The notes under the pieces: model-generated
Seen by the model: only the letters and a program-made list of their open reading frames with translations
What the model was told of the DNA's origin: nothing
Databases searched by the model: none
Program-made: the position numbers and the translations under genes
Shown here: positions 1,844 to 23,859 of the stretch, piece after piece
Numbering within the stretch: the stretch's first letter is position 1
Layout: the number at the start of each line of letters is the position of its first letter
Origin: Patescibacteria group bacterium
Lineage (GTDB): Bacteria; Patescibacteriota; Patescibacteriia; Magasanikbacterales; GWA2-37-8
Assembly: GCA_041661385.1 (NCBI GenBank)
Contig: JBAZUP010000003.1
Span: 1 to 34,298, forward strand
Length of the DNA: 34,298 nucleotides
Direction of reading: 5' to 3'

Positions 1844-1844
1844 T

Positions 1845-2369
1845 ATGAAAAAAGTTCCGACTCTGAATTTTATTCCTAAAAAATATTTAGACAATAAAAT
1901 CTTCGCCAAACAAATGAAAATCGTTAAATACGCACTGAGATCTTTTTCATTAATATTGTTGGGATTGCTGGTTTTCAACATTGTCGGTATAAGTGTAAAC
2001 GCTATTGGTTATAACGCAACTTTATCACCGGAAATCGAAAAAAAATACAACGAAACAAAAATCAAAGTAGTTGAATTGAAAATAAAAAAAGATTCGATGG
2101 AAAAAGCTGAATACGAATATTTTCAATATGACCAAATTCTGGATATGATCAATAATGCCAAACCCGACGATATAAAATTTACAAAAATTGATATCAAATG
2201 GGATAAAGTAACGATAAACGGCGTTGGAGAACACGTACAATCATTCAACAGATTCGCCGAAAATTTGCAAAAACAAGGCAAAATGTTTGAAAAAGTGATG
2301 GTAGACAGAATGGAATCTGAAAAAACCGGCAATCAAAAAACATTCACATTATCGACAACATTAAAATAG
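1845..2369 (+). CDS. pilN: PilN-like bitopic pilus alignment protein
   Basis: N-terminal LNFIPKKY motif (compare the PilN INLLP motif), followed by a single TM (FSLILLGLLVFNIVGI) and a periplasmic coiled-coil-rich domain. RBS GAGGAAAAG upstream. Confidence 0.55.
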   Translation: MKKVPTLNFIPKKYLDNKIFAKQMKIVKYALRSFSLILLGLLVFNIVGISVNAIGYNATLSPEIEKKYNETKIKVVELKIKKDSMEKAEYEYFQYDQILDMINNAKPDDIKFTKIDIKWDKVTINGVGEHVQSFNRFAENLQKQGKMFEKVMVDRMESEKTGNQKTFTLSTTLK

Positions 2370-2382
2370 AAAGGAGAATACG

Positions 2383-2928
2383 GTGAATTTAAAAAAATTT
2401 AACAGCGAAGTTGATGCACATCCGGAAGCAAAAAGAATTATAAAAATACAAGGATTGATCATCACGATATTAATTATCGGCGTAATGTTTTCTTCTTTTT
2501 ATAAATCCAGTCAGGCAAATTCAATAAACACAACAAGCTACAAATTAAAAGAAATAAACAATTATATCGCTGATTATGACAAATCCCGCGAAGCTTTTGA
2601 ACAAACAACAGCTACAAAACGAATGCCGGTAGCAATTCAAGACCTGGATAAATTACAAAATGACATCTTACGGCTAATGCAATCATATAACTTGCACATA
2701 ATCGGTATGACCGCCACCGCGCCGGCCGACAATCAAGATATAAAAAGCTATGAATACAAAATCTTTTATAACGGCGAATGGCGAGACATAATGAATTTTC
2801 TGAAAAATTCATCAACATACAGGTTTAAGGGTAAGTTGGTATTGGTAAATTACAAAGACGTTTATTTGGAAGCAACCGAAACCACCAAACTCAACGGACA
2901 GCTTTCATACAAAACGTTCGTAGAATAG
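2383..2928 (+). CDS. pilO: PilO-like bitopic pilus alignment protein
   Basis: GTG start 8 nt after AAAGGAGAA. One N-terminal TM (IIKIQGLIITILIIGVMF), then a coiled-coil and an alpha/beta domain. Sits between the PilN-like and PilP-like genes. Confidence 0.45.
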   Translation: MNLKKFNSEVDAHPEAKRIIKIQGLIITILIIGVMFSSFYKSSQANSINTTSYKLKEINNYIADYDKSREAFEQTTATKRMPVAIQDLDKLQNDILRLMQSYNLHIIGMTATAPADNQDIKSYEYKIFYNGEWRDIMNFLKNSSTYRFKGKLVLVNYKDVYLEATETTKLNGQLSYKTFVE

Positions 2929-2937
2929 GAGCCACTT

Positions 2938-3612
2938 ATGAGTAAAAAATTCAAATATTTAATCGTTGTAATGTTGTTTATAGCGGCAATCTTTCTTGGT
3001 TGGATATTATTCGCAACAAAAACGCCGCCAAAACAAACACCGAAAATAACGGCTGTACCTAAATTTACCGCTCCGGTGGAAGTAAAAATAGAAAGCATAA
3101 AACCTTCACCATTTACTCAACTGATATCGTTAAACAACGAAAACAAAACAACACCAAGCGCAAACCCGATACCCAATATGCCACCAATTCCTAATGGAAC
3201 ATTCCCGGTAAATCAAGAAATGCCGGTTATGCCAAAATTTGACACAAAATCCAATTCACTACCACAAATCCAAGCAATAATCATCGACAGCGGTCAAACA
3301 CTGGCAATACTATCAGACGGAACTAAAACCGCAACAGTAACAAAAGGTTTTGAAAGCCCATGGGGAACAATAGATAACATAACCAACGAAGGCGTTAGTA
3401 TTAACGGGAGTTTTATTGCGGTATCACGGCAAATGCGAACCGAACAAACTGAAAGACAAAAACAAGAATCAAACAAACCGGCGCCAATGCTTGATCCGAC
3501 TGGCAACAGTATAAGTTTCAATAATACCACTAATAATTTCACACCACCAGGCACAATTGTTACACCGGAAGGCACTTTTTCTCCACCGCCAATTAAAAAT
3601 CAAACAAAATAA
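2938..3612 (+). CDS. PilP-like periplasmic protein (signal anchor, Pro-rich linker, small beta domain)
   Basis: N-terminal hydrophobic anchor and Pro-rich linkers. Core QAIIIDSGQTLAILSDGTKTATVTKGFESPWGTIDNITNEGVSING resembles the PilP/GspC-HR beta domain. Lies directly upstream of the secretin. Confidence 0.45.
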   Translation: MSKKFKYLIVVMLFIAAIFLGWILFATKTPPKQTPKITAVPKFTAPVEVKIESIKPSPFTQLISLNNENKTTPSANPIPNMPPIPNGTFPVNQEMPVMPKFDTKSNSLPQIQAIIIDSGQTLAILSDGTKTATVTKGFESPWGTIDNITNEGVSINGSFIAVSRQMRTEQTERQKQESNKPAPMLDPTGNSISFNNTTNNFTPPGTIVTPEGTFSPPPIKNQTK

Positions 3613-3626
3613 GGAGCGCATTTTTA

Positions 3627-5033
3627 ATGAAAAGATTTTTAGCTTTCATTCTGACCATAATAATTTTCACAGCGCCAATTATCAGTTATGCCGAACACTC
3701 AGATGTTATAAACATTGATATGATGCAAGATACCCGGCTAAGCGACGTATTATATTCTATCGCATACAGCAGTGGACGCAGCATAGTTATCAATGCAAAA
3801 CTTGATAATTATATAAAAGGCAGTATAAAAGGCAAAGACATCTACAGTGTACTTGATTATCTTGCCTACACCAATAATTTCAACTACGAAGTATTGCCAG
3901 ACGGAACAATTTTGGTAAGTCCGGCCGACACAATGACCACAAATAAATCGTTCAAATTAATATACGCTAATCTTGAAGACGCAAAAAAACAATTAATGTC
4001 TTTTGTCGATGAAAAGAAAATTCAGATAGATATAGAACAAAACACAATAGCAATAGACGGCACAGCGTTACAAATAAGAAAAGCCGCGCAAAAATTAAAA
4101 GAAATGGATTTTCCTGCCAAACAAATTCTCCTGGAAGTCCAATTGGTTGAAGTAAGTAAAGATACTGGCCGCGATTTGGGAATTGCTTATCAAATGCCCG
4201 GATATAACAGCACAACCGGACCATTAAACGCAGACAATATATCCTGGGCAGTAACAACTTACGCAAACGACATCATTGGTTCCGGAAAAGTATTGGCGCG
4301 TCCATCAATGGTCACACAAAACGGCAGAAAAGCCACTGTCAAAATGATTGATAAAGTGCCAATTCTTACAGTAAATATTTCAAATTCCGGTGACCGTCAA
4401 ACACAAGTCGCTTATGAAGATGTCGGAATCACATTCATTGGAACCCCAAGAGTAAATTTTGAAAATGGCGAAGAACAAGTAACTATGGACATCCACCCAA
4501 CAGCCAGCGCAATTACAAAATGGGTGACAAACGGCGATACAAAAGCGCCACAAATAGCTTCCCGCGAAGCTGAAACCGTCGTCAGGGTAAAATCCGGCGA
4601 AACAATTATCATCGGCGGTTTATTAAAAGATGAAGAAATTGAAGCATTAAATGAAGTGCCATATTTATCGCAACTACCGATTCTCGGCGGATTATTCAAA
4701 TACTATCAAACCGCCAAAGGCAACAGCGAAGTATTTATTTTTGTAACACCAACTGTCTTAAACGCTGATGGCAGCCTGCCAAAAAACACAAAAAGCAAAT
4801 TACAAACTACGGGTATCCCGGAAAAAGACCAAAATATCACAATTTTAGATGATTTAAAAAAGACTGAAATACCAGCACCGGAAATTCAACAACCAAAAGT
4901 ATCGTCAACATACCAGGATCAAAACACCAAAGAAACCGCAAAAACCGGACAAGAAACAACGACACAACCAACACCGTCAAAAACAACGGCAACCCAACGA
5001 ATTAATAACATCCTCAATGAATACCCGGAATAA
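3627..5033 (+). CDS. pilQ: Secretin (PilQ/GspD family) with Thr/Gln/Pro-rich C-terminal extension
   Basis: Signal peptide, secretin N-domains and the C-terminal secretin signature: VLARPSMVTQNGRKATVKMIDKVPI, VGITFIGTPRVN, APQIASREAETVVRVKSGETIIIGGLLKDEE, VPYLSQLPILGGLFK, SEVFIFVTPTVL. Confidence 0.9.
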   Translation: MKRFLAFILTIIIFTAPIISYAEHSDVINIDMMQDTRLSDVLYSIAYSSGRSIVINAKLDNYIKGSIKGKDIYSVLDYLAYTNNFNYEVLPDGTILVSPADTMTTNKSFKLIYANLEDAKKQLMSFVDEKKIQIDIEQNTIAIDGTALQIRKAAQKLKEMDFPAKQILLEVQLVEVSKDTGRDLGIAYQMPGYNSTTGPLNADNISWAVTTYANDIIGSGKVLARPSMVTQNGRKATVKMIDKVPILTVNISNSGDRQTQVAYEDVGITFIGTPRVNFENGEEQVTMDIHPTASAITKWVTNGDTKAPQIASREAETVVRVKSGETIIIGGLLKDEEIEALNEVPYLSQLPILGGLFKYYQTAKGNSEVFIFVTPTVLNADGSLPKNTKSKLQTTGIPEKDQNITILDDLKKTEIPAPEIQQPKVSSTYQDQNTKETAKTGQETTTQPTPSKTTATQRINNILNEYPE

Positions 5034-5077
5034 CAACACTTAAATAACTTCTAAATTTTAACAGGAGAACGCTAAAA

Positions 5078-5111
5078 GCCGTTTTCTATGAAAAAAAACA
5101 TAGAAAACGGC
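5078..5111 (+). promoter_or_regulatory. Perfect 13-bp inverted repeat (GCCGTTTTCTATG-A8-CATAGAAAACGGC) enclosing the first ATG of the ATPase ORF
   Basis: Read directly: left arm 5078-5090, A8 loop 5091-5098, right arm 5099-5111. The ATG at 5088-5090 lies inside the left arm. Confidence 0.6.
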
Positions 5112-6710
5112 AAGCGAAAATTTATGACAAACGAAGCTAAATTTTCTTTAACATATTATGAAGACTTGTCAAAAATATCAATAAACCACGACGTTATTAA
5201 TAAAATATCTCCAGATCAAGCCGTAAAATACCAAATAATACCGATAAATTACAAAGATGGAAAATTAACACTGATTACAGCCGACGGCAATAATTTCAAA
5301 CTCCAAAATGAATTAGAAAAAAAGTTTGGACCAATAACACTAAAAATAACCACACCACAAAACCTGGAAGCAGGCATTAACCGAATTTATGACGACGGTT
5401 ACAAATTCGAACAACGTGACGCACTAAAAGACTTTGAAACACAACAAACAAACACTAAAGCCGCGGCATCCTCGGACCTTGCACAAATGGTAGATGCAAT
5501 AATTCGTGATGCAGCACTAAAAAACGCCTCAGATATTCATATTATACCAACCGAAAAAGACACACGGGTTATGTTTAGAATACATGGCAAGTTTTTAAAT
5601 GTAACCGATATTCACCATATTAAAAGCGGTTCACACGAAAAAGTAGTAAACCGGATAAAAACAATGTGCAAACCATCATTAGACATTTCTAAAAAGGAAA
5701 TATTTCAAGACGGAAGTTTTAGCGTGTCCCTTGATGAAAACAATAATAATAATTTTCACTGCCGAGTTAACGTTGGTCCGACAGCCCTAAAAAACGAAGG
5801 TATTGTTATTCGGATTCACGATTCTAAAAAAGCCGCAAAAAAACCCGACGAACTGGGATTCACTAAAGAAGACCTGATTTGGTTAAAAAAACTACTCAAA
5901 GTTTCCGCAGGCATGATTTTAATCGCCGGACCTACATCAAGCGGTAAATCAACAACCATTCAATCGTTATTAAGTGAATATAACGCTGATGAATTTAAAT
6001 ACAAAATAGTAACAGCAGAAGATCCGGTTGAGGTGAAATGTTCCGACGGAACAATAATTCAAACAGAAATCAAAAAAGCTGAAAATGAAGCAGTTTCCAT
6101 AGGCTATGCCGATATCATAAAAGCTTTTTTACGACAGGATCCGGATATTATCATGGTTGGTGAAATTCGCGATAACTTAGTAGCTACTGCGGCATTGCAA
6201 GCCGCCGAAACCGGCCACGTCCTTTATTCAACAGTCCACGCCAACAGCGCCAGTGCCACAATGGGCAGGATGTTTAATATGGGAATTGAAAAATTTGATT
6301 TACTACAAAATATCGCCTGCATTATCGCCCAAAGGTTAATCGCTACAAATTGCGAATATTGCGCCGAACCACATATTTTAACTGAAGATGAAAAACAATG
6401 GTTAACGCCGCAAGAAATTGAAGACTTAAAAAGCGGAACATTAAAAAGCAGCACAGGTTGTGAAAAGTGCAACTACAAAGGAGTAGGCGGCCGTATAGTA
6501 GTTGCTGAATTCATCCCGTTCAACAATAAAATCAGAGACTACTTCATGCAAGAACACTCAGCAACCGAAGTATTAAAGTTTTTGCAAACAGAAGCAGGAT
6601 TTATCTCAATGTGGGAAAAGGGTATAGAACACGCAAAATCCGGGAAAATAACTATTGCCGAATTAGGTGAGGCGCTGGGCGATGAACGAATCATCGCAGC
6701 AAGTCTCTAA
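5088..6710 (+). CDS. pilB: Type IV pilus / T2SS assembly ATPase (PilB/GspE family)
   Basis: GSPII_E N-domain-like region; Walker A GPTSSGKST; Walker B DPDIIMVGEIRD; His box GHVLYSTVHAN; tetracysteine motif CEYC..CEKC. The start is ambiguous (ATG 5088 lies inside a hairpin; alternative ATG at 5124). Confidence 0.92.
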   Translation: MKKNIENGKRKFMTNEAKFSLTYYEDLSKISINHDVINKISPDQAVKYQIIPINYKDGKLTLITADGNNFKLQNELEKKFGPITLKITTPQNLEAGINRIYDDGYKFEQRDALKDFETQQTNTKAAASSDLAQMVDAIIRDAALKNASDIHIIPTEKDTRVMFRIHGKFLNVTDIHHIKSGSHEKVVNRIKTMCKPSLDISKKEIFQDGSFSVSLDENNNNNFHCRVNVGPTALKNEGIVIRIHDSKKAAKKPDELGFTKEDLIWLKKLLKVSAGMILIAGPTSSGKSTTIQSLLSEYNADEFKYKIVTAEDPVEVKCSDGTIIQTEIKKAENEAVSIGYADIIKAFLRQDPDIIMVGEIRDNLVATAALQAAETGHVLYSTVHANSASATMGRMFNMGIEKFDLLQNIACIIAQRLIATNCEYCAEPHILTEDEKQWLTPQEIEDLKSGTLKSSTGCEKCNYKGVGGRIVVAEFIPFNNKIRDYFMQEHSATEVLKFLQTEAGFISMWEKGIEHAKSGKITIAELGEALGDERIIAASL

Positions 6711-6726
6711 TTCAAAGGAGAATACC

Positions 6727-7815
6727 ATGAACGACAACACCAGCACTATAGAAAAATTAAACAGACTTGTTGCTAGCAACCCAAGCAACGAAGAATGGTT
6801 TTTATTTTTCACCAATCTGCATGCGTTTCACAGAAGTGGGATGGGATTATCGATAGCGCTTGATACCATTGCCGCAGAATCTACAAACCTGAAATTAAAA
6901 GAATGCCTTTTTTCAATGGCAGTAATGATTAAAGACGAAGGAATACAACTAGCGGAAGCTATGGAACGACAAAAAATCTTTCCAACGCTGGCAGTATTCA
7001 CCATCCGCGCCGGTGAAAAAAGCGGCAATTTAGAAAAAGCAATGGAAGAATTAACCCAACAAATTGAACGACAAGGAAACATTACGCAAAAAATCAAAAC
7101 AGCGCTATTACCTGTTTATATTTCCTACGCGTTTCTTTCAATCGCAGCCGTAATCGTTTTTGCGTTTCTTATTCCAAAATTTCAGGTTATCTACAAAGAA
7201 AGAAACATGGACTTACCGGCATTTACAAAAATGACTTTTGCGGTATTGGACTTTATCAAAAATCAGTGGTATATCATTGCGTTAATCGCTATTGCTATAG
7301 GTTGCGCAATTTATTACATAAAAAAACATAAACAACACTGGTTAGATAAATTATGGCTAAAAACACCGGTAATAAAAAGCTTGGTATATTACCAGCTTCA
7401 ATATCGGATAAGCACAAATTTCGCAATGTTTGCAGCTTCCAACAGCAATCATATTGATACGCTGGAAGAATTAGCCAGTATTTCCGGAAACACAATTGCG
7501 GCAGACGCACTACGAAAAACCGCAATAAAAATTATGAACGGTAATTCGTTGTCCAGCTCAATGAAAGAAAACAACGAAGAAAAAATCTTCGATTACATTC
7601 TGATGAATATGGTAAGAAGCGGCGAAGATAACGGAAGCTTGCCTTATCAACTTGGTATAGCGGCAGAAGTATATCGAAAAAAAGTTTTGGCGATTATTGA
7701 AAATTTTGGAACAAAAATTACCACAGTTACACTTATCCCAATAGCAATTGTATTTGTATTCATTATGGTAAGCCTCTACTACCCGATGCTAATGATCAGC
7801 CAGGTGAAACATTGA
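6727..7815 (+). CDS. pilC: Inner-membrane platform protein (PilC/GspF family)
   Basis: ATG at 6727 lies 6 nt after AAGGAG (6715-6720) and just after the pilB stop. Has GspF-type repeats (FPTLAVFTIRAGEKSGNLEKAMEEL; MNMVRSGEDNGSLPYQL) and 3 TM segments. Confidence 0.85.
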   Translation: MNDNTSTIEKLNRLVASNPSNEEWFLFFTNLHAFHRSGMGLSIALDTIAAESTNLKLKECLFSMAVMIKDEGIQLAEAMERQKIFPTLAVFTIRAGEKSGNLEKAMEELTQQIERQGNITQKIKTALLPVYISYAFLSIAAVIVFAFLIPKFQVIYKERNMDLPAFTKMTFAVLDFIKNQWYIIALIAIAIGCAIYYIKKHKQHWLDKLWLKTPVIKSLVYYQLQYRISTNFAMFAASNSNHIDTLEELASISGNTIAADALRKTAIKIMNGNSLSSSMKENNEEKIFDYILMNMVRSGEDNGSLPYQLGIAAEVYRKKVLAIIENFGTKITTVTLIPIAIVFVFIMVSLYYPMLMISQVKH

Positions 7816-8228
7816 AGCGCGCGGGATTTACGCTTATTGAACTAAGTTTGTGTGCAATTGTAGTAGGAATACTTGTTGCCGGCGGCGTATATGCCTTCAA
7901 ATCAAGCATCGATAGCGCCAGAAACGCCCAGGCAATGACAGTTTGCACACAAATAGCAAGCGCAATAAGTCAATATAAATACGAAAACAAAGCATATCCT
8001 GCTACGCTGGCAAATTTATTAACAGTTAGCCCAAAATCAGGAAACGCTTATCTCAGCGGACTGCCAGCAGCCGACCCCTGGGGAACAACAATTGAATCCT
8101 ATGGCTATTTATACAGAGTGAACAACAATGTTTTCATGGTGTTTAGTTACGGACAAGACAAAATAATACAAAGCTCTTCCACGCCGCCAACTATAAGCGG
8201 CGATGACGTCGGCGTAGTAAGCAAATAA
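7812..8228 (+). CDS. GspG-like pseudopilin/pilin
   Basis: Prepilin signal KRAG|FTLIELSL with Glu at +5. C-terminal DPWGTTIESYGYLYRVNNNVFMVFSYGQDK matches the T2SS GspG signature (DPWG..Y.Y....SxGxD). The TTG start overlaps the pilC stop. Confidence 0.8.
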   Translation: MKRAGFTLIELSLCAIVVGILVAGGVYAFKSSIDSARNAQAMTVCTQIASAISQYKYENKAYPATLANLLTVSPKSGNAYLSGLPAADPWGTTIESYGYLYRVNNNVFMVFSYGQDKIIQSSSTPPTISGDDVGVVSK

Positions 8229-8533
8229 CCCTAATCTCACACCCCCGCTGAAGCTTTGCAGCTCAAGTCCCCTTTGAAGCTTTAAAACCCTTTCAATCGC
8301 AACAGGAGCGTCCTGTTAACGATATATCACACACCAATCAAACGATGTACATCAAACAGCTAGCCCAACGATTAGGCCAATCAGCGGGCAAAACGAAAAA
8401 AGGAGAGATTTTATTGGAAGATTATCCCAACACAAAACGTTATAACAATTTTCCCGTTAACTAAAGGAGGCACACAATATAACAATTTTGAGTGCATCAC
8501 CACAAAAAATCTAAAAATCGAAAGAGGTAAAAA

Positions 8534-8956
8534 ATGCAACTATTCAATAAAATGCTGGCTAAAAAACGTTCAGGTTTCACAATGATCGAGTTAACAATCG
8601 TAATGATTATCCTGGCAATCTTGATTGGTGGCGGTATCTACGCCATGAACGCACAATCCGATAACGCAAAAAACACGATTACCGTCCAGGATTTGGATTT
8701 GCTCGGTGGCGCATGCGGACAATATGCCGCATTCTCCAAAGACGGCAAACCACCTGTATCGCTATATGATGTAGTAACCGGAGTAACAGCCACAAACAGC
8801 GTAACCGGCAAAGCATCAGGACCATTGGTAGCTAATTCAAAATGGACAAGTGCTGCAACAATGGTAGACGGTTGGGGAACTGCATTTACCTATGATGCAA
8901 GCGCACGTACAATTACCAGCGCTGGTAACGGAACGCCGATAGTTAAAAGCTTCTAA
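8534..8956 (+). CDS. Major pilin/pseudopilin, paralogue 1
   Basis: Strong RBS AAAGAGG. Prepilin signal KKRSG|FTMIELTIVMIILAIL with Glu at +5. DGWG..F.YD C-terminal motif. Preceded by a 305-nt leader and followed by a hairpin. Confidence 0.85.
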   Translation: MQLFNKMLAKKRSGFTMIELTIVMIILAILIGGGIYAMNAQSDNAKNTITVQDLDLLGGACGQYAAFSKDGKPPVSLYDVVTGVTATNSVTGKASGPLVANSKWTSAATMVDGWGTAFTYDASARTITSAGNGTPIVKSF

Positions 8957-8975
8957 TCCAAACTTTTCACAAATA

Positions 8976-9002
8976 AGCGTGGCGGCATTAACTCGCCACG
9001 CT
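8976..9002 (+). terminator. Stem-loop after pilin 1 (AGCGTGGCG-9 nt-CGCCACGCT), no U-tract
   Basis: 9-bp perfect stem read directly. It lacks a T-run, so it may be a partial terminator or mRNA stabiliser rather than a canonical intrinsic terminator. Confidence 0.4.
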
Positions 9003-9040
9003 CCTTAACCATAATTCGAAATTAAAAAATAGGAGAGCAA

Positions 9041-9466
9041 ATGACAATATTCAATAAAATGCTGACTAAAAAACGTTCAGGTTTCACAATGATCGAGTTA
9101 ACAATCGTAATGATTATCCTGGCAATTTTGATTGGTGGCGGTATCTATGCTATGAACGCTCAATCCGATAACGCAAAAAACACAATTACCGTCCAGGATT
9201 TGGATTTGCTCGGTGGCGCATGCGGACAATATGCCGCATTCTCCAAAGACGGCAAACCACCTGTATCAATATTTGACCTATTAACCGGAGTAACGGCCGG
9301 AAATAGCGTAACCGGCAAAGCATCAGGACCGTTGGTAGCTAACTCAAAATGGACAAGTGCTGCAACAATGGTAGATGGTTGGGGTAACGCCTTCGTTTAT
9401 GATGCAGCAGCACGCACCATTACCAGTACTAATAACGGCGGCACGGCAATAGTTAAAGGATTCTAA
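9041..9466 (+). CDS. Major pilin/pseudopilin, paralogue 2
   Basis: RBS TAGGAGAG. Residues 4-76 differ from paralogue 1 only at residue 9 (Ala vs Thr). About 15 substitutions overall, mostly in the C-terminal part. Confidence 0.85.
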   Translation: MTIFNKMLTKKRSGFTMIELTIVMIILAILIGGGIYAMNAQSDNAKNTITVQDLDLLGGACGQYAAFSKDGKPPVSIFDLLTGVTAGNSVTGKASGPLVANSKWTSAATMVDGWGNAFVYDAAARTITSTNNGGTAIVKGF

Positions 9467-9477
9467 TTAAATCAATA

Positions 9478-9504
9478 ATGCGTGGCGGTAAACCCGCCAC
9501 GCAT
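9478..9504 (+). terminator. Stem-loop after pilin 2 (ATGCGTGGCGG-5 nt-CCGCCACGCAT), no U-tract
   Basis: 11-bp perfect stem read directly. It shares the GCGTGGCGG core with the hairpin after pilin 1. Confidence 0.4.
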
Positions 9505-9534
9505 CTAATACAACCCAAATCAAAAGAGGTTAAC

Positions 9535-10539
9535 ATGCACAAAATTAATTTTAAGAAAAGACATGGCGGCGTATTGTTATTAGAAGCCGCAATCGCCTCA
9601 ATAATACTTGCGCTCATATCCTACGGGGTAGTGCAAGTTAACTCAGCAATGTTCACCGGGCTTAGCGCCAGTGAAAACGGTTACCAAGCCCAATTTTTAG
9701 CTATGGGCAAAGCCAATGAAATAAACGCAACTGCCTATACAGCGCTCACGGGGTTACCACGTGCGGCAATATCCGGAACAAGCTTCGAACGCGAAGTAAT
9801 AGTAGGCGCAGAAACCGACATAGGCGGGGGCGTATTACAAAAAAATGTAAATGTAAATGTATACACACCTGGAGTAGCAACGCCCACCTACTCCCTGTTA
9901 TTGCAGCCAACCAATAAAGGCACAGCAGCAAACGCAGTACCAATGGGTACAATAGTAATGTGGTCTGGTTCATCAATACCAGCCGGGTGGCAAGTATGCA
10001 ACGGAACCAACGGCACACCAGATATGCGCAACAGATTCCCAATCGGCGCTGGCGAAAGAATGGTAGGAGTCAGCTATGGCACAAGTTGGGTTATTCCGGC
10101 CCAAACTGTTTCAACCTACGGGCATCAACATACTGCAACAACTTCAATGACTGATACAAACCACAATCATTATGTTGATTTATCAGGAAGCACACTAGGC
10201 CATATATTAACAATACCCGAAATGCCCAGTCATAATCATGCAATGCCTATAACAAACGAAGGCAAATTTGGCGGTGGATGGCCAACAGGGGGATCCCAAT
10301 CTCGATTATCTTATAACGCTACCGAATACGCTGGCGGCAGTGGTGGTGTTACACAACCACACTCCCACCCCCTCAACGGAACCGTAGTATCCCGAAGACA
10401 AGACGAAAGTCCGCTTAACAACGGCCACGCCCACGCCCACAACTTAACCACTACCGCCGATTACCACAACCACACCACCTCGGCGCATCAATTCAACCCT
10501 CCACTAACCGCCATATATTTCATCATGAAAATGAGTTAA
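9535..10539 (+). CDS. Minor pilin-like protein fused to a phage tail-collar / HxH-rich fibre-like domain
   Basis: ATG at 9535 after AAAGAGG; the track start at 9478 lies in the hairpin. Prepilin signal KRHGG|VLLLEAAIA with Glu at +5. GTIVMWSGSSIPAGWQVCNGTNGTPDMRNRFPIGAG and LTIPEMPSHNH resemble the PF07484/COG4675 signature. Six HxH sites in the C-terminal third. Confidence 0.75.
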   Translation: MHKINFKKRHGGVLLLEAAIASIILALISYGVVQVNSAMFTGLSASENGYQAQFLAMGKANEINATAYTALTGLPRAAISGTSFEREVIVGAETDIGGGVLQKNVNVNVYTPGVATPTYSLLLQPTNKGTAANAVPMGTIVMWSGSSIPAGWQVCNGTNGTPDMRNRFPIGAGERMVGVSYGTSWVIPAQTVSTYGHQHTATTSMTDTNHNHYVDLSGSTLGHILTIPEMPSHNHAMPITNEGKFGGGWPTGGSQSRLSYNATEYAGGSGGVTQPHSHPLNGTVVSRRQDESPLNNGHAHAHNLTTTADYHNHTTSAHQFNPPLTAIYFIMKMS

Positions 10540-10541
10540 TT

Positions 10542-10934
10542 ATGCTTAAAAAAAGAAACGGTACATCGTTCGTCGAATTATCTATCTACATAATCATATT
10601 AACATTAATACTAACCGGTTCTGTTGCGGTTATCCGTAACCCAACACAAATAGCCGATGATGCCGATCTAAAAAACACTTTAATGGTACTAGATATGGCG
10701 CTAGCGAAATATCAAGAAACACATTTAAAAAACTTACCAGAAAACTCGGATTGGAAAACAAAACTAACCGAATTAAAATACATTGACGATAATCTATTCG
10801 ATAAATACACTAACGCCGGAATAAGTTTCAATTATACAAAACTAATTATTACCGGAAATGTTCAAAAATATACCTTGTCAGTAACAAATAAACAGGGAAT
10901 AACGCTCACCTCAATCGGTAGTTATATTCCTTAA
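10542..10934 (+). CDS. Minor pilin/pseudopilin
   Basis: Prepilin signal KKRNG|TSFVELSIYIIILTL with Glu at +5. Small 130-aa protein starting 2 nt after the preceding stop. Confidence 0.65.
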   Translation: MLKKRNGTSFVELSIYIIILTLILTGSVAVIRNPTQIADDADLKNTLMVLDMALAKYQETHLKNLPENSDWKTKLTELKYIDDNLFDKYTNAGISFNYTKLIITGNVQKYTLSVTNKQGITLTSIGSYIP

Positions 10935-10941
10935 GGAAATT

Positions 10942-11442
10942 ATGTTTACATTAACTATAATCGCAAAAATCGCGATCGCAATTTATTTGCTCGTAATTGC
11001 TTACATAGACTATAAAACCATGACAATCGACGACAAAATGGTATTAATCGGCGTTATTACAATAACGCCGATATACCTGATTACCAACAATTTTGACTGG
11101 CGTTACTCGCTTTTCGGAGCAATACTCGCCTTAATCTGCACCGGAACAACCTATCTAACCGCTAAACTACTCTTAAAAAAACCAGGCTTCGGACTAGGCG
11201 ACGTAACGCTATCGATACTGATCGGAATAATCGTCGGCTGGAAATGCTTTATCTTAGTGTTTTTCTTAGCGCACTTCATCCACATGGCGTTTTATTTAAT
11301 AATAATCCTGATAAAAAGAAAAAAATTCAAAGCAACCGACACACTGCCGTTCGCGCCAGCTTTCGTAACAGCAACAATAATTAACTTAACAATGACACAG
11401 GGAATATACCCGGTTTTCGAACGTATAATATTATCAAAATAA
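10942..11442 (+). CDS. pilD: Prepilin peptidase, A24 family, minimal form without the N-terminal methyltransferase/Cys-rich domain
   Basis: 166-aa polytopic membrane protein with the two Asp motifs AYIDYKTMTIDD and GFGLGDVTLSILIG. Last gene of the pilus set. Confidence 0.75.
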   Translation: MFTLTIIAKIAIAIYLLVIAYIDYKTMTIDDKMVLIGVITITPIYLITNNFDWRYSLFGAILALICTGTTYLTAKLLLKKPGFGLGDVTLSILIGIIVGWKCFILVFFLAHFIHMAFYLIIILIKRKKFKATDTLPFAPAFVTATIINLTMTQGIYPVFERIILSK

Positions 11443-11486
11443 TCACCATAAATATCAAAATTACAAACAAGGAGAAAATCCCGAAA

Positions 11487-11981
11487 ATGAACAATAAAGC
11501 AGCAAAATGTGTCAACTTAATTCTGGACGGTAAAGACAAAATATCAACAGTAAAACAAAACGAAAAAACCGCAAAAAAAGAACTCGAAGAAATCATGAAG
11601 AAAAGAGGCGTCACTATACTCGAAACAGAATTCGCTACCGTTACGTATACCGTTGCCATGGACAAAAAAACTGGTAATCCAAAAACAAAAAAAGTTTTTG
11701 ATAAAAAAGCATTTAAAGAAGAAATGCCCGACATTTATAAACAATATTGGCTTAAAAATCCGGATTTTGATATTGAAAAAACCGAAACATATGAAGAATA
11801 TAAAAACGAACTCCAAATTTTTAGTAATGCAACAAAAACCGCCTGGAAACAAATCAACGAAATCGATCTCAATACAAAAGCAGCACTACTTGGTATACCG
11901 GGTAATACGGTATTAACTCAATATATTCTCCTTTTAGAAGCCCGTGTGCGAGAAATTGAAACAAAATTATCGACGATATAA
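11487..11981 (+). CDS. Hypothetical Lys/Glu-rich coiled-coil protein; weak resemblance to the siphovirus Gp157 family
   Basis: RBS AAGGAGAA. N-terminal coiled-coil, then TEFATVTYTV..KKVFDKKAFKEEMPDIYKQY. The family call is by eye only. Confidence 0.4.
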   Translation: MNNKAAKCVNLILDGKDKISTVKQNEKTAKKELEEIMKKRGVTILETEFATVTYTVAMDKKTGNPKTKKVFDKKAFKEEMPDIYKQYWLKNPDFDIEKTETYEEYKNELQIFSNATKTAWKQINEIDLNTKAALLGIPGNTVLTQYILLLEARVREIETKLSTI

Positions 11982-12044
11982 GCGGGCTTAAACGCCGTCA
12001 ATAACCCGTTGCGACTATATGATATTGACGGCTTATTGCCCGCT
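11981..12044 (+). terminator. Long imperfect hairpin closing the pilus transcription unit
   Basis: AGCGGGC (11981-11987) pairs with GCCCGCT (12038-12044), and the inner GCCGTCAATA (11994-12003) pairs with TATTGACGGC (12023-12032). No clear U-tract. Confidence 0.45.
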
Positions 12045-12115
12045 TAAAGAAATATACATATAACTTTTATATTGTTGTATAATAAGGGTTAAGAAAACTT
12101 AAGGAGAACATCCGA

Positions 12116-15100
12116 ATGTTCACTCAAAGCTCAAAAACAGTAAGTATAATCTTGCTGATCGTATTCCTGTTCACCCAATTCGCCGGGGCAGCCGCTAACA
12201 ACGAAATACCAATGGCCAATACCAGCACCCCTGCGACAAACGCCTCCGGTGTTCCTGCGGCAAACAACAGTGTTCAAAATTCCATCACCGCCGGGAACAA
12301 CCTGATGAACTACTACATATCACAATGGCTAACCGGTGGACCAGCCTGGTTAAAACGCATTCAAGTCTCCGGAAGTTTCGAAAACAACCAGGCAATTTGG
12401 CAAGCCAGTACTATTCAGCCAATATTTAATTACGACGAAAGCCTGGAAGATGTCTTGTTCTGGCAAGCCAGCTACGCCAGCTTAAACAATACCGGAAACA
12501 TCGGTTTAGGTTTCCGCGATTTATCCGACAGCCACAAATCAATTTACGGCATCAACGCCTTCTACGATCATCAATTCACCGTAACCGCGCTGGACGGCTC
12601 TAACGCCGGCGCACACCAACGTGTAGGATTAGGCCTGGAATGGTTCTACGGACCGCTGGAAGCCCGCGCCAACGCCTATTACGGCATAAGCAACGACGTC
12701 TTCCTTGGCAACTCTGGTGATTGGGCCTATTGGGAACGTGTAATGAACGGATTTGACGCTTCATTAATCACTAATATGTCCTTCGTGTCCGCACCCTGGC
12801 TAAAACTCGGTGTCGTCGGCTCGAATTACTTGGCAACCCAGGCAATGTTAGGTATTGCCAACCCCAACGTGTCAAATATCGCCGCTGTTGCAAGTTTGCA
12901 AATATTCCCGCAACTAAGCATCAACGCCGCCTATAATATGCAAAACACCGGCGCCAACAACGCTACAATCGGCTTTGCCTTCAATCTGTTAGCGCCGCCG
13001 GTACCGGCAATGCTTTGTGGCAACGAAATCATCAACGATAACGCGTCGAACGATATCAGCTACAAAATGCTGCAACAAGTACAACGCAACAATACCATTC
13101 AAACAGAGCGATATACACTGTCCCGTGTCGGCGACGTAAATATAACAGTAATGGCCGGAACTACGCCGGTTTCCGACGCACTGGTAACGATTTATGACAA
13201 CAACAACGTCCAGGTAGCTCAATCGAGCAGCGGCGTTAGCGGCGTCTATAATTTCGGACACCTTATTGCCGGAACAAATTACCAGGCAACAGTAACAAAA
13301 CAACCCTATGACAACGCCGCGGCTAATTTTACCGTCGCAGTTGGCAAAACTACCGCCGTTACAATCAATTTAGAAACTACCGCAGTAGCGATAACGGTTG
13401 TATATACCAACCAGGCGCCAGTAGCCAACCAAACAGTTACGTTAACAAACAGCAGCGGCAACGCAATATTAACCGCCGTTACCAATACCAGCGGCGTTGC
13501 TAATTTTTATCAAGTAACCCCGGGCACTTATAATATTAGCGCAGTCATCAATGGCGCAGCTTATGGCGGCTTAAAAACTAATTTTGCCGTAGTCAAAGGC
13601 TTAACGCAAACCGAATTAATCATCGGGCCGCAACAACCGGGAGCCGGAAACGCCAATATTACTTTAACCGATAATAACGACAATCCAATCTCCGGAGTTA
13701 CGGTACAAATATATTCCGGTATCGACCAAAGCCAAACCGCAATAAGTAACGGAAGCGGTATCGCCGCATTTACCAACTTGCCGCTTGGCAGCTATATTTT
13801 TTCAGCAGTTTCTTCCGGACTGGTACGCTACTCAAACAGCGTAGCAATCAGCAACGGAACGACTACTACCAGCGCCATAAGTTTTTCCACAAGCACTTTC
13901 GGGAACATCAATCTAACAGTGAAAACTAATGATGGAACACCGATCGGCAATGTAAACACTTATTTAACGACATTAAGCGGACAACAGACCGGCTATAGCG
14001 CCACTAGCAATACCAGCGGCGTAGCCGCATATACCGGCGTCCCGGCTGATTCATATATTGCCAACGCAACCTATGAAAACAATCAATATACCAGTAACCC
14101 GTTTAGTGTTTCAGCGGCAACGGCCGCAACTCCGTCAATCACCGTAGGCGCAACCGCGCCGCTGTACGTTATCGTAAAAGATAACGGTGTAGCCGTAACC
14201 GGAACAGTTGTTAACCTGCAACCAGGAAATATGCAAACAGTTACCGACAGTAACGGCAACGCCTATTTTAACAACGCCCCAATCGGAATATTAACCGCTT
14301 CAGTATATACCCAGGTTGTTACCCAAAAAACAGTTAATGTCACTTACGGACAAACAAATTTCAGCACAATCAACTTAAATACTAAAGCAAGTGCCGAAAT
14401 CACCGTACTAGATATTAACAGCGTACCAATAGTTAACAGCACCGTGCAAATGACTGGAACAAATAACGTTTCAGCAACTACCAACGCCAGCGGTATCGCC
14501 GCCTTTACGGGCTTAACCGCCGTTAACCAGCAACAACTATACGCCGTAATCAACGGTAATGTAATATCCGGACAACTAAACTTAATGGCCGGGGCTGTTA
14601 ACCAATACGTCCTGAAAGCCGGAACCGGCAACCTGCAAACTCAAGTGGTTGACGCATCTGGCGCCGGAATTAACGGCGTGCTGGTAAACGCAACAAACTT
14701 CAATAATTCCGCAACAATAAGCGGAACAACCGACAGCGCCGGAAACGTCAATATCCCGCTGGCCAGCGGTCTCTGGACCGTAGCCGCAATATATAACGGC
14801 AACGCCTATGCTTATAGCAACAACGGCGATACCAACGTCGAAATACTGGCTAATTCGGTAAAAACCATTCAAATAACCGCAGCCGCAATTTCACCGTCCG
14901 TAAAAGTTGTCGATAATGCCGGTGCAACCGTATTCGGCGCGTTAGTATATTACAACAGCGAAAAGAAAATGGTAACAACGAATATGTCCGGCGTCGCCCA
15001 ATTAACCGGTGCAACGAACGGAACCCAGCAAATACTGGTCTATCCAAACGGACGAACACAATCTTATCATTACACTTATAACACCAGCCTGCAAAACGGC

Positions 15101-16132
15101 GCAGCAATCCAAACGTTGCAAAACAAAACCGGAACAATGCGAATACATGTAATTGATAGCAACGGCAATCCAATCATTGGAACTAACGTCCAAATAACCA
15201 ACCCGGTGGATGGCAACGAAGCTGGTCAGTATGCCGCAACAAACAGCGCTGGTTATGCTGATTTTATCGTACCTATCGGCTGCACCTACACTGCAATAGC
15301 TAGTAACGGTACCGAGCCCTTTTACCCAACAGTTAATCCGGTTATTACCAACAACGCAATTACTGATACCTATATAAAAGTATCAACGCTGCCAACGGCA
15401 AATGTAACAGTTACCGTTAATGGAACGCCAGTGTCGGGAGCAACAGTTACCCCTTACCTGAATTCAAAGCAAATACAAAACGGAACGACAAACGGGAACG
15501 GCGTAGTAAGCTTCGCAAATTTAGAAACTGGTAATTACGAATTCCGAACATTTTTTACGTATAACGGCAACAGTTATATCACAAGCGTACAAGCAACGTT
15601 GATAAATGGTACATATCCGATAACTATAAATTGTTCAACAACCGCTACCGGCACTGCAACAGTACTTGTACTTGACGCACACAACACGCCGTTGTCCGGA
15701 GTAGTTGTTAGTGGCGGCACCGGGCCAATCATTACAACAAACGCCCAAGGTTATGCAACAATAACAAACCTTCAAACTGGCAACGCCACTTTCTCTGTTC
15801 AAAATTATGGAACAAATATAAATATTTACCACGTTACGACAAACATCGTTGCTAACCAAACAACCAATGTAACTTTAAAAGAAGCTGTTGGCACAATAAA
15901 CGTCACAGTTTACGACGTTAACAATAATCCAGTAGCCGGAGCCACGGTTGAGACCTATGAAAACAACAGCACATACAGAACAGTGGTTACAAACGCCAGC
16001 GGCGTAGCATCCTTCGAAAACCTGCCAATTTGGGAAAAATTCAACTTCATTAATGGCGTTTCGCCAACCCTCTGGGGCGTAACAGTCTACGACGGACAAA
16101 CAACCCAAGTTGACATGCACGCAGTGCAATAA
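12116..16132 (+). CDS. Inverse autotransporter (intimin/invasin-type beta-barrel) adhesin with about 12 tandem CarboxypepD_reg-like domains
   Basis: Signal peptide ..FTQFAGA|AANN. N-terminal barrel with the alternating aromatic pattern GLGFRDL, GINAFYDH, GLGLEWFYG, ARANAYYG, GFDASL, typical of the PF11924 inverse-autotransporter beta domain. The passenger is built of ~80-90-aa Asn/Thr/Val-rich repeats. RBS AAGGAG at 12101. Confidence 0.85.
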   Translation: MFTQSSKTVSIILLIVFLFTQFAGAAANNEIPMANTSTPATNASGVPAANNSVQNSITAGNNLMNYYISQWLTGGPAWLKRIQVSGSFENNQAIWQASTIQPIFNYDESLEDVLFWQASYASLNNTGNIGLGFRDLSDSHKSIYGINAFYDHQFTVTALDGSNAGAHQRVGLGLEWFYGPLEARANAYYGISNDVFLGNSGDWAYWERVMNGFDASLITNMSFVSAPWLKLGVVGSNYLATQAMLGIANPNVSNIAAVASLQIFPQLSINAAYNMQNTGANNATIGFAFNLLAPPVPAMLCGNEIINDNASNDISYKMLQQVQRNNTIQTERYTLSRVGDVNITVMAGTTPVSDALVTIYDNNNVQVAQSSSGVSGVYNFGHLIAGTNYQATVTKQPYDNAAANFTVAVGKTTAVTINLETTAVAITVVYTNQAPVANQTVTLTNSSGNAILTAVTNTSGVANFYQVTPGTYNISAVINGAAYGGLKTNFAVVKGLTQTELIIGPQQPGAGNANITLTDNNDNPISGVTVQIYSGIDQSQTAISNGSGIAAFTNLPLGSYIFSAVSSGLVRYSNSVAISNGTTTTSAISFSTSTFGNINLTVKTNDGTPIGNVNTYLTTLSGQQTGYSATSNTSGVAAYTGVPADSYIANATYENNQYTSNPFSVSAATAATPSITVGATAPLYVIVKDNGVAVTGTVVNLQPGNMQTVTDSNGNAYFNNAPIGILTASVYTQVVTQKTVNVTYGQTNFSTINLNTKASAEITVLDINSVPIVNSTVQMTGTNNVSATTNASGIAAFTGLTAVNQQQLYAVINGNVISGQLNLMAGAVNQYVLKAGTGNLQTQVVDASGAGINGVLVNATNFNNSATISGTTDSAGNVNIPLASGLWTVAAIYNGNAYAYSNNGDTNVEILANSVKTIQITAAAISPSVKVVDNAGATVFGALVYYNSEKKMVTTNMSGVAQLTGATNGTQQILVYPNGRTQSYHYTYNTSLQNGAAIQTLQNKTGTMRIHVIDSNGNPIIGTNVQITNPVDGNEAGQYAATNSAGYADFIVPIGCTYTAIASNGTEPFYPTVNPVITNNAITDTYIKVSTLPTANVTVTVNGTPVSGATVTPYLNSKQIQNGTTNGNGVVSFANLETGNYEFRTFFTYNGNSYITSVQATLINGTYPITINCSTTATGTATVLVLDAHNTPLSGVVVSGGTGPIITTNAQGYATITNLQTGNATFSVQNYGTNINIYHVTTNIVANQTTNVTLKEAVGTINVTVYDVNNNPVAGATVETYENNSTYRTVVTNASGVASFENLPIWEKFNFINGVSPTLWGVTVYDGQTTQVDMHAVQ
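13133..16129 (+). repeat. About 12 tandem degenerate domain repeats (~80-90 codons each) in the adhesin passenger
   Basis: Recurrent pattern (I/V)x(V/L)x(V/D)xxxxP(I/V)xGAxVx...T(T/N)xxGxAxFxxLxxGxYxxxA, for example TVTDSNGNAYFNNAPIG, TNASGIAAFTGL, TNASGVASFENLP. Confidence 0.75.
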
Positions 16133-17046: not shown

Positions 17047-17988
17047 ATGTCAACATTAGGAAATAGATTAAAATTACTAAGAGAAGCAAAGAATTGTACA
17101 CAAAAAACAATAGCGGATCGTTTAGGTATATGCAGAGAAGGTTACACTTATTATGAACTAAACAATCGCGAACCTAACATCAAAACCATAATAAAATTAG
17201 CGGAATTTTTCAATTGCACTACTGATTACTTATTGTGTAATAGCAATAACTCTAATATGCCATTTTTAAAAAACAATAATATTGATACAAATATAACACT
17301 AGGAAACCGACTAAAAAAATTACGCTATAAACTAGATAAAAATAAAAACCAAGCTGAAACAGCACGGAAACTAGGCATATCGCCAATAAATTATAATCGC
17401 TTCGAACACGATGTAGCGGAACCAAGCTATAAAATTCTGTTAAATATAGCAAAATTTCATAATTGTACAACAGATGATCTATTCGGCATAACAAACACAA
17501 TCAACAATATTATCGTTATTGAACCAGAACCAAAAAATAACAATAACATAATCAAAATACTCCGTAAAAAGAAAAATGTGACACAAAAACAACTTGCGAA
17601 AGAAATCTCCGTAACGAAGGGAACTGTTTCCAGTTGGGAAAACAACCAAAGCGTTCCACCTTTGGTCTATCTTGAAAGACTTTCAAAATACTTTTCTGTC
17701 ACAGCGGATCTACTACTTGAAATAATAAACACATCCACTGATGTAAAAAACAACATAATTAAATCACTTCGACAAAAAAAATACTTAACACAAAAACAAC
17801 TTGCGAAAGAAATTTCTACAACACAGGCTATAACAACACAGGCTATGATTTCTAAATGGGAACTCGGCCAAAATAAAATACCTGCAGTACAGCTTAAAAA
17901 ACTCGCAAAATATTTTTCCGTCACAACAACCTATCTACTTAAACAACTTAAACAACCAACAAACCCTAATAGGAGCAACAATGTTTAA
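17047..17988 (+). CDS. XRE-family DNA-binding protein with four tandem HTH (HTH_3) domains
   Basis: Four ~60-aa units, each with the pattern LGxRLKxLRxxKxxTQxxLAxxLxxSxxxxxxxExxxxxPxxxxLxxLAKxFxxxxDYLL. Units 3 and 4 share a long near-identical nucleotide stretch (ACACAAAAACAACTTGCGAAAGAAAT). Confidence 0.85.
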   Translation: MSTLGNRLKLLREAKNCTQKTIADRLGICREGYTYYELNNREPNIKTIIKLAEFFNCTTDYLLCNSNNSNMPFLKNNNIDTNITLGNRLKKLRYKLDKNKNQAETARKLGISPINYNRFEHDVAEPSYKILLNIAKFHNCTTDDLFGITNTINNIIVIEPEPKNNNNIIKILRKKKNVTQKQLAKEISVTKGTVSSWENNQSVPPLVYLERLSKYFSVTADLLLEIINTSTDVKNNIIKSLRQKKYLTQKQLAKEISTTQAITTQAMISKWELGQNKIPAVQLKKLAKYFSVTTTYLLKQLKQPTNPNRSNNV

Positions 17989-20644: not shown

Positions 20645-20878
20645 ATGAATACGAAAGTGCAACAATGGGGTGGTAGCCAGGGTGTTAGAATTCCAAAAAA
20701 CATTCTGGAAACAATTGGATTGCACATCAACGATTTAGTTGAAATTGTGGCAGGAAAAGATAGTTTAATAATCCGAAAGCCAAAAAAATATGATATCAAA
20801 ACATTATTCGCCCACTACAAAGGTGAGTACCAACCAGAAGATGTTTGGGGATCATCTGTAGGACAAGAGGCCTTATAA
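20645..20878 (+). CDS. mazE: MazE-like antitoxin (AbrB/SpoVT fold)
   Basis: VQQWGGSQGVRIPKNILETIGLHINDLVEIV matches the MazE swapped-hairpin motif. RBS GGTGGAGG. The stop lies 2 nt before the toxin ATG. Confidence 0.85.
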   Translation: MNTKVQQWGGSQGVRIPKNILETIGLHINDLVEIVAGKDSLIIRKPKKYDIKTLFAHYKGEYQPEDVWGSSVGQEAL

Positions 20879-20880
20879 CT

Positions 20881-23805: not shown

Positions 23806-23859
23806 TCCAAACTACTGAGCACTTTCTTTTTCAGAAGTTAAATATAGTTGGAGGTTGAC

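Follow-up and report, generated by a model that had tools for sequence, protein, structure and literature searches.

In the first 34,298 nucleotides of contig JBAZUP010000003.1 from a Patescibacteria group bacterium (assembly GCA_041661385.1; this whole stretch is called the window here), a gene at 9535–10539 on the forward strand encodes a modular minor pilin of 334 residues, in which a small pilin module is joined to a domain related to phage fibre tips. Our preferred reading, to which we give a probability of about 0.62, is that this protein is a low-abundance minor pilin of a pilus resembling type IVa pili (T4aP) and type II secretion systems (T2SSs), that the pilus is probably carried on a mobile element, and that the protein acts as a tip adhesin for partner-cell recognition. 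By analogy, the most likely role of the tip is in specificity, as a functional counterpart of PilV of IncI plasmids that recognizes a partner or recipient cell. Recipient recognition is favoured because the family diversifies its tips in a PilV-like manner and because relatives are linked to conjugation or plasmid genes.

The reading frame of the fusion gene is intact (stop codon included in the above coordinates), and its translation is identical to that quoted in an earlier reading made from the sequence alone (the sequence-only reading), which had proposed a phage receptor-binding module grafted onto a pilin anchor. An alternative in-frame ATG at 9478 gives a longer open reading frame (ORF) with 19 additional residues. 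The start at 9535 is preferred because a Shine-Dalgarno sequence, AAAGAGG, lies 6 nt upstream of it and because leaders in relatives carrying the same N-terminal module (N-module) are 6–22 amino acids (aa) long. The protein has four parts: a basic leader, a hydrophobic helix, a pilin fold, and a C-terminal domain (residues 131–334). The class III-type leader MHKINFKKRHGG (12 aa, 9535–9570) is basic, ends in Gly-Gly, and is directly followed by VLLLEAAIASIILALISYGVVQ, placing Glu at +5 if cleavage occurs after the second Gly. The pilin module (residues 13–130, 9571–9924) consists of helix α1, which extends to residue 65, and four strands. The two modules are joined by QPTNKGTAANAV (9904–9939), predicted to be a flexible junction; its counterpart in relatives is …SSQGSG… or …TAQENG…, a segment that there is encoded by the shufflon recombination site described below. 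Beyond the junction lie a conserved “collar” core, PMGTIVMWSG…CNGTNGTPDMRNRFPIGAGE (9940–10059), with near-invariant columns and a confident structure prediction, then a variable region that is rich in Gly and His and contains the six HxH sites (residues 183–315, 10081–10479), and finally a closing strand, FNPPLTAIYFIMKMS (10492–10536), which corresponds to the family C terminus (N)xPPYYALxYIMK and aligns with the C terminus of the solved fibre 9qgo.

The sequence-only reading had described the N terminus as a class III signal with Glu at +5 followed by about 130 residues of pilin-like sequence, and for this protein both descriptions are borne out. A short basic leader with a Gly end precedes about 20 hydrophobic residues, and the same pattern, with the consensus K(K/R)RKG, is present in most N-module proteins with a complete N terminus. 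What does not extend to the family is the glutamate: V, I, or L takes its place in most members, and only a few have Glu at +5; nor is the signal recovered by the general prepilin profiles, as discussed below. Glu at +5 is also absent from tip pilins such as GspK. A profile of the family aligns with the leader and cleavage site of a Geobacter pilin, at no better than E=0.011. In a monomer prediction by AlphaFold2 from an alignment of 62 sequences, residues 11–130 have predicted local distance difference test (pLDDT) values above 90 and form a helix at 11–65 (55 residues) and strands at 74–78, 85–95, 101–110, and 119–123, so that a long N-terminal helix lies against an antiparallel sheet, as is typical of the pilin fold. 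The top Foldseek matches in the PDB, covering residues ~30–125, are the minor pseudopilins EpsI/GspI and XcpV, with template modelling (TM) scores of 0.59–0.79 on target length. The EpsI/GspI structures 2ret and 3cfi score 0.66–0.79 with a probability of 1.0 (0.72–0.79 for 2ret alone), and the XcpV structure is 5bw0. The N-terminal 130 residues are thus confidently predicted to adopt a small, GspI-like pilin fold. The likeness to GspI is structural only, as the protein has no sequence match to the GspI models in NCBIfam. None of the neighbouring pilin ORFs scanned matches the GspJ or GspK models of Pfam and NCBIfam.

In the C-terminal part, a phage tail collar signature (PF07484) had been recognized from the motif GTIVMWSGSSIPAGWQVCNGTNGTPDMRNRFPIGAG (residues 138–173). 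The Pfam match itself is marginal: it scores 23.5 bits against a cut-off of 24, covers residues 138–158 and model positions 1–21 of 57 only, and misses the gathering threshold. The underlying relationship to fibre tips, by contrast, is firmly recovered by other searches. As a single sequence, the protein matches the tail fibre 9qgo over residues 134–333 (E=2e-8; phmmer against the PDB), and it matches two tail families in PHROGs at 6.6e-17 and 7.5e-13, the second of which is annotated “tail collar fiber protein”. A profile search of residues ~135–334 had been suggested as a check, and a profile of the C-terminal domain built from this protein and 31 homologues, searched against the PDB, returned significant full-length homology to solved fibre tips: 9qgo (Pvc13, a fibre of the Photorhabdus PVC; E=2e-29), 9nxk (Pa223 gp60; E=3e-28), 6ov6 (C24 of a Bizionia phage; E=1e-24), and T4 gp12 (1pdi and 1ocy; E=5e-6 and 3e-5). 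Pvc13 is a trimeric fibre whose C-terminal region is homologous to the host-binding domains of phage short tail fibres; the Pa223 fibre is likewise trimeric, with a tip that “closely resembles” the T4 gp37 tip; and C24 has been described as the receptor-binding tip of a phage long tail fibre. By sequence comparison, therefore, residues 131–334 are homologous to the trimeric tips of phage and injection-system fibres represented by Pvc13, Pa223 gp60, C24, and T4 gp12.

The HxH sites are all present where they had been reported, at residues 197–199 (HQH), 210–212 (HNH), 233–235 (within PSHNH), 276–278 (HSH), 298–302 (HAHAH), and 311–313 (HNH), but their conservation in homologues holds for one of them only. 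PSHNH is the sole site that is positionally conserved across homologues (≥90%), and its H233 and H235 are among the columns conserved at this level, together with W143, G145, P149, G151, W152, C155, T161, P162, and P231. In a pairwise alignment, the sites at 233, 298, and 311 line up with HxH motifs of Pvc13. The remaining sites fall within a region of variable length, and the motif occurs 0–21 times per homologous protein. Paired HxH motifs supplied by three chains coordinate Zn in gp12 and Fe in gp37, and an iron-binding HxH region has been reported in tail needles. By analogy with these proteins, the tip domain probably forms a homotrimer that is metal-stapled at its HxH sites.

An exhaustive search of 1.84 billion cluster representatives yielded 10,605 matches at E≤1e-3; of the 150 best, roughly one in three aligns from query residue ~5. 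Of the 188 proteins collected, 51 match a hidden Markov model (HMM) of the N-module, and all 51 are among the best 150 representative clusters. Sequence comparison thus shows an N-module that is common to about 50 clusters, among which the C-terminal tips differ. One consensus of the N-module reads K(K/R)RKG, hydrophobic helix, …AQQxAxxKAxEI…Y…R..I.G..FxREVIVGxExDLGGGNKQRxxTVNVYKxGE..PR.SL…SSQGSG. Three types of tip follow it: the type described here (IVMWSG…PSHNH…PPYYALxYIMK), a classical gp12/MdpB type ending in …ETRPxNxAL..CIK, and a glycine-rich domain (Pfam Gly_rich_2). Accordingly, the C-terminal Pfam matches among 45 family members are Collar in 16 (E≤0.001, best 3.8e-16), Gp10_C in 11, and Gly_rich_2 in two. 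Most members have no or one HxH motif, and none has as many as the protein of the window, which has seven when overlapping motifs are counted.

Other searches delimit the family. A word-indexed search with the whole protein found only C-terminal homologues and two unrelated prepilin fusions (P0017 and P0024), and a profile search of the same word-indexed kind, started from the alignment of N-modules, found only two short pilins. A scan of viral contigs with the protein gave only short, unrelated collar matches, and a scan of genome contigs with the operon's ATPase for related operons gave a single unrelated match, in Pararhodobacter. The N-module of the window had no tblastn match among 72,556 PLSDB plasmids or 50,697 phage records, and a consensus-like N-module had one match among these plasmids, plasmid pSSP59 of Sporomusa sphaeroides. 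No description of this N-module family was found in the literature searched. P0017 and P0024 were considered as orthologues and set aside; they do not carry the N-module and are independent fusions to the same type of fibre tip. Their N termini, GFSLIE in P0017 (locus L001) and GFSLAE in P0024 (locus L002), are those of canonical prepilins. In P0024, an Asn/Ala-rich, repetitive, coiled-coil-like stalk replaces the globular domain of the pilin, and the gene stands alone in a chromosome-like context without pilus genes.

How relatives vary their tips is most apparent in pSSP59 (locus L014, NZ_CP146992.1). Its pilus operon ends in a gene for a 158-aa N-module protein (E=9e-11 to the protein of the window), and inside the 3′ end of this gene lies a 25-nt site (…CTGCCCAAGAAAACGGTAA…) that recurs five times in inverted orientation, each time before a promoterless tip cassette (locus positions 10400–13600, ~25.4–28.6 kb of the record). 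The cassettes include both collar types and a stretch of repetitive, GGT-rich sequence, and are labelled “phage tail protein” or “hypothetical protein” in the record. A tyrosine recombinase and IS21 are located near the cassettes, and type IV secretion system (T4SS) genes flank the pilus operon at its opposite end. Judged from this arrangement, the cassette array is a shufflon, apparently an unannotated one. Locus L012 is built alike, a 23-nt inverted repeat flanking its single alternative cassette. A different arrangement is seen in L016, where nine tandem full-length fusion paralogues (5425–13608) lie between the pilins and the genes for a small pilin and an A24 peptidase; their N-modules are 33–89% identical, their C-modules are 26–79% identical, and they represent two tip types. 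In the window, a shufflon was ruled out by searches for inverted and direct repeats, for hidden cassettes by tblastn, and for an sfx-like consensus, all of which were negative. No recombination site, extra cassette, or recombinase is found near the fusion gene, and the window copy is therefore a fixed variant. Taken together, sequences of the family describe what appears to be a conserved pilin carrier with exchangeable tips, varied by shufflon, by tandem paralogues, or as single fixed variants. The earlier suggestion of a candidate pilus-tip adhesin is strengthened by the relatives whose tips are exchanged by shufflon or multiplied in tandem.

The fusion gene lies inside a single co-directional pilus operon that is complete in the window, as annotated with Pfam and NCBIfam, with all genes on the forward strand. 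The machinery genes (911–7815) begin with an unannotated 310-aa ORF (911–1843), followed by PilN (1845–2369), two unknown ORFs, a secretin (3627–5033), a PilB/GspE-type ATPase with an MshEN domain (5088–6710), and a PilC/GspF platform protein (6667–7815). Next come a 138-aa GspG-like pilin (7812–8228; PF08334, T2SSG, at 2.9e-9) and two tandem paralogous pilins (8534–8956 and 9041–9466), which have the leader KKRSG|FTMIE and match N_methyl and TIGR02532. These two pilins are 89% identical in amino acid sequence, include a 300-nt direct repeat at 93% identity, and are probably the major pilins. Between the second of them and the fusion gene lies a 12-bp GC-rich hairpin (9477–9505), and a similar one lies 3′ of the first pilin gene (~8976–9002), neither with a clear T-tract. 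These hairpins may act as attenuators that adjust how much major pilin is made relative to minor pilin, reduced read-through keeping the latter scarce. The fusion gene is followed by a gene for a small pilin-like partner (130 aa, leader KKRNG|TSFVE; 10542–10934), the start of which overlaps the region of the fusion gene's stop codon, and by a gene for an A24 prepilin peptidase (166 aa; 10942–11442; PF01478 at 9.5e-14). This peptidase consists of the peptidase domain only and has no match to A24_N_bact, the N-terminal domain family that the L005/L006 peptidase (292 aa) does carry. All machinery proteins score far under the equivalog cut-offs for both T2SS and T4aP, with about equal scores for the two, and the system is therefore divergent.

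A survey for recurrence of the fusion beside pilus operons had also been proposed, and in related loci the fusion does recur with its gene order kept. The triple of fusion, small pilin-like gene (~115–130 aa), and A24 peptidase is found again in L004 and L016. Homologues of the small partner directly follow the fusion in L004 and L007 (E 9e-9 and 1.5e-7); L007 has no peptidase in view. In L013 and L016 the ORF in this position resembles the partner by two criteria, its length and a hydrophobic stretch at the N terminus. The location of the peptidase 3′ of the fusion gene, two genes down in the window, is kept in L004, L005/L006, L013, and L016; in L005/L006 it stands directly after the fusion. 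Given this position and the order conserved in relatives, the fusion protein is predicted to be a prepilin processed by the A24 enzyme, as the sequence-only reading had suggested. Upstream, the order of GspG-like pilin, pilin, and fusion recurs in L015, L016, and L017, and gene order is kept overall in L013, L014, L015, L016, and L017. The 49.7-kb bioreactor contig L013 repeats the order of the window operon from a PilN-sized ORF to the peptidase and then continues into VirB9/CagX and a Rep_3 initiator. The machinery operon is syntenic with, and 21–38% identical to, those of L013 and pSSP59; for pSSP59, identities are 38% for the secretin, 34% for the ATPase, and 40% for the pilins. In pSSP59, TrbI/VirB10, TrbB, VirB3, and TrbG precede the syntenic pilus operon. 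A RepB primase is encoded in L007, and in L016 a topoisomerase, SSB, and a nuclease are encoded after the pilin and peptidase genes.

This type of fusion is not unprecedented: the literature mentions pilin/tail-collar fusions on two occasions, in one case under IPR011083, which we take to be a tail-collar entry. New here are the GspI-like carrier, the T4aP/T2SS-type machinery, the conserved gene triple, and the three modes of diversification on one carrier. The closest functional parallel is PilV of the IncI1/IncI2 thin pilus (R64, TP114, Rci shufflon), which is likewise a minor pilin of a mobile-element pilus with a constant N-terminal part and exchangeable C-terminal segments, and whose inversion logic is the same as in pSSP59 and L012. 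In R64 and TP114, binding of lipopolysaccharide (LPS) by PilV selects recipients (PMC12282955). PilV differs in belonging to a type IVb pilus and to the Shufflon_N family (PF04917), whereas the machinery in the window is of the PilB/GspE, PilC, and secretin type and the tips are phage-fibre tips; moreover, PilV has a shufflon at its locus and the window copy does not. Membership of PF04917 was examined and rejected, as neither the protein nor 28 N-modules of its family match at E≤1. The first fusion noted before, UCP91044.1, combines Shufflon-PilV (PF04917) with the phage tail collar (PF07484) beside pilus genes, and it was hypothesized that a phage domain had been repurposed for recipient specificity (Milman et al. 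2023, PMC9881135). It resembles the present protein in joining a pilin to a tail collar near a pilus operon, but its carrier is PF04917 rather than a GspI-like module, it is a single locus mentioned in passing and without structural analysis, and the present family does not appear in that study (PMC9881135). The second is found in a catalogue of 1,219 modular pilins, which holds two architectures with IPR011083 (PMC8179133). Modular pilins of this kind include PilB with a vWA module and PilC with a lectin module in S. sanguinis (Raynaud et al. 2021, PMC8179133). As here, a small pilin bears a module attached by a short linker, and exposure at the pilus tip has been proposed; the modules of PilB and PilC are monomeric, however, whereas here the module is a trimer-forming phage fibre tip and tips are systematically exchanged.

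How a trimer-forming module could fit on a pilin subunit had been raised as a puzzle, and a published precedent exists in CofB of the enterotoxigenic Escherichia coli (ETEC) type IVb pilus, a minor pilin that is homotrimeric and is proposed to make up the pilus tip (cited in PMC8179133). CofB and TcpB are precedents for three copies of one minor pilin at a tip, with C-terminal, β-rich, ligand-binding domains. They have no sequence relationship to the present protein and belong to another pilus class, and trimerization here is deduced from homologous fibre tips only. These solved tips, Pvc13 (9QGO), Pa223 gp60 (9NXK), C24 (6OV6), T4 gp12 (1OCY/1PDI), and the gp37 tip, share with residues 131–334 the IVMWSG…CDGTNGTPD core, PSHxH, further HxH sites, and the PPYYALxFIMK strand. 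The solved tips, which are trimeric and receptor-binding, sit on coiled or β-helical shafts of baseplates, and here the pilin module replaces the shaft. For the carrier, the structures that match best are those of GspI/EpsI/XcpV; GspI lacks a C-terminal extension, and Glu at +5 is variable in the present family.

In the mechanism we propose, the co-encoded A24 peptidase would remove the 12-aa leader, and the fusion protein together with its small pilin-like partner would prime filament assembly, which would leave the fusion protein at the pilus tip. Three copies would then join their C-termini into a trimer metal-stapled at the HxH sites, as in the solved homologues, and the fibre-tip domain would attach to another cell through a receptor on its surface, be it LPS, a glycan, or a protein. 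The choice of tip would thus set the partner-cell specificity of a mobile-element pilus.

Around the operon, only a few genes hint at a mobile element: an HNH/RRXRR endonuclease (36–914), a MazF-type toxin (20845–21216), a repressor with helix-turn-helix (HTH) and S24 domains similar to LexA/CI (29888–30535), and a regulator with four Cro/C1-type HTH domains that overlaps the start of an SLT lytic transglycosylase (17047–18565). The SLT protein is 50% identical to that of L005, a locus that also has a fusion homologue. The most conspicuous neighbour, located 1.6 kb 3′ of the fusion gene, is an inverse autotransporter of 1338 aa (12116–16132) with an IAT_beta domain and at least seven CarboxypepD_reg/Ig-like repeats. 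With a GC content of 0.45–0.47, versus ~0.31–0.39 in the flanks, it may be a separate acquisition. Directly after the peptidase gene, a 164-aa ORF (11487–11981) matches phrog_6244, a family of unknown function, at 2.7e-10, weakly matches part of a RecE-like exonuclease family, and is overlapped by a 117-aa antisense ORF. A 107-aa ORF at 16193–16516 matches, over its last ~30 residues, the C-terminal end of the anaerobic ribonucleotide reductase NrdD, presumably its glycyl-radical region. This ORF could encode a “spare-part” glycyl-radical protein or be a gene remnant; a full NrdD is present in L005. Further along are an 801-aa pentapeptide-repeat protein and a 495-aa protein of twelve DUF4116 repeats (21400–25335), as well as a TnpB/Cas12f-like protein with OrfB_IS605 and TNB domains (27132–28214), beside which no TnpA is visible.

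Several points weigh against a mobile-element pilus with a recipient-binding tip. No T4SS gene, relaxase, integrase, or replication gene is visible in the 34-kb window, and a conjugation role for the window copy is extrapolated from relatives of 29–43% identity. The prepilin HMMs PF07963 and TIGR02532 do not match the protein at E≤0.1, and PF07963 matches only one or two members of the N-module family. GspI-type pilins normally occur in heterotrimeric tips with GspJ and GspK, neither of which is recognizable here. Tip location, trimerization, and metal binding are all points that we infer. In the monomer prediction, pLDDT is below 50 over most of residues 183–315 (183–211, 215–220, and 244–315), with a confident collar core; such low values are what would be expected of an intertwined trimeric needle but are no proof of one. 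Orphan genes also exist outside pilus operons, namely P0047 in L008 and the independent fusion P0024 in L002. Finally, Pvc13, to which the tip is closest among solved structures, is part of a device with proposed eukaryotic target cells, and an inverse-autotransporter adhesin is encoded alongside; adhesion to a host, instead of a recipient, is therefore conceivable.

These last two observations are central to a serious rival explanation, which we consider unlikely, in which the same architecture serves as a colonization adhesin for a eukaryotic host or for abiotic or biotic surfaces, as part of an adhesion island with the autotransporter. The DUF4116 and pentapeptide-repeat proteins nearby would also fit such an island, as would the lack of visible T4SS genes. 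Nevertheless, relatives with readable context adjoin T4SS, Rep, primase, or topoisomerase genes, shufflon-style tip switching is a hallmark of recipient-range adhesins, and the autotransporter, with its higher GC content (versus about 0.38), stands outside the conserved synteny. A quite improbable alternative is that the class III-type N terminus serves only for membrane insertion or export, so that the product would be a fibre anchored at the surface or in the periplasm, or a component of a secretion pseudopilus, and would not be exposed on an extended pilus. The nearly equal scores of the machinery for T2SS (GspE, GspF, GspD, and GspG) and T4aP, an operon without a retraction ATPase, the resemblance of the module to the pseudopilin GspI, and the missing prepilin HMM match all agree with this view. 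However, the two tandem, near-identical pilin genes, each with a hairpin on its 3′ side, may point to an abundant filament subunit, a 200-residue receptor-binding tip makes little sense in the periplasm, and tip diversification implies selection by an external ligand. A very improbable third reading is that of a prophage tail-fibre gene, degenerate or chimeric, that has no pilus function and whose signal-like N terminus is an accident of annotation or recombination. Its C-terminal domain is typical of phage fibres, and the window contains an HNH endonuclease, a CI-like repressor, and TnpB. Yet the surroundings contain no other tail or capsid genes, about 50 clusters conserve the N-module, which always precedes a tip domain and is absent from the phage records searched, and the synteny with pilins and A24 peptidase is conserved. 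The family and synteny data essentially refute this explanation.

Beyond the preferred reading of a partner-recognizing minor pilin, we tentatively raise the possibility that these loci represent an undescribed class of mobile-element pilus, with a homotrimeric GspI-like pilin tip, a metal-stapled phage-fibre needle, a shared pool of receptor modules, and three modes of diversification. If so, plasmids, phages, and injection systems would draw on one horizontally exchanged pool of receptor-binding modules to set host or recipient range. If the tip sets cell binding, the PilV/shufflon principle would reach beyond enterobacterial IncI plasmids, into a different class of pilus and into further lineages, among them the diderm Firmicute Sporomusa with its plasmid. 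Conjugative or other mobile elements would then be borrowing receptor-binding modules from the same set that serves phages and contractile injection systems. In S. sphaeroides pSSP59, a cultured system is at hand in which the shufflon can be tested directly. The 130-aa pilin carrier with its fibre tip would, moreover, offer a compact, swappable scaffold for studying and engineering cell targeting.

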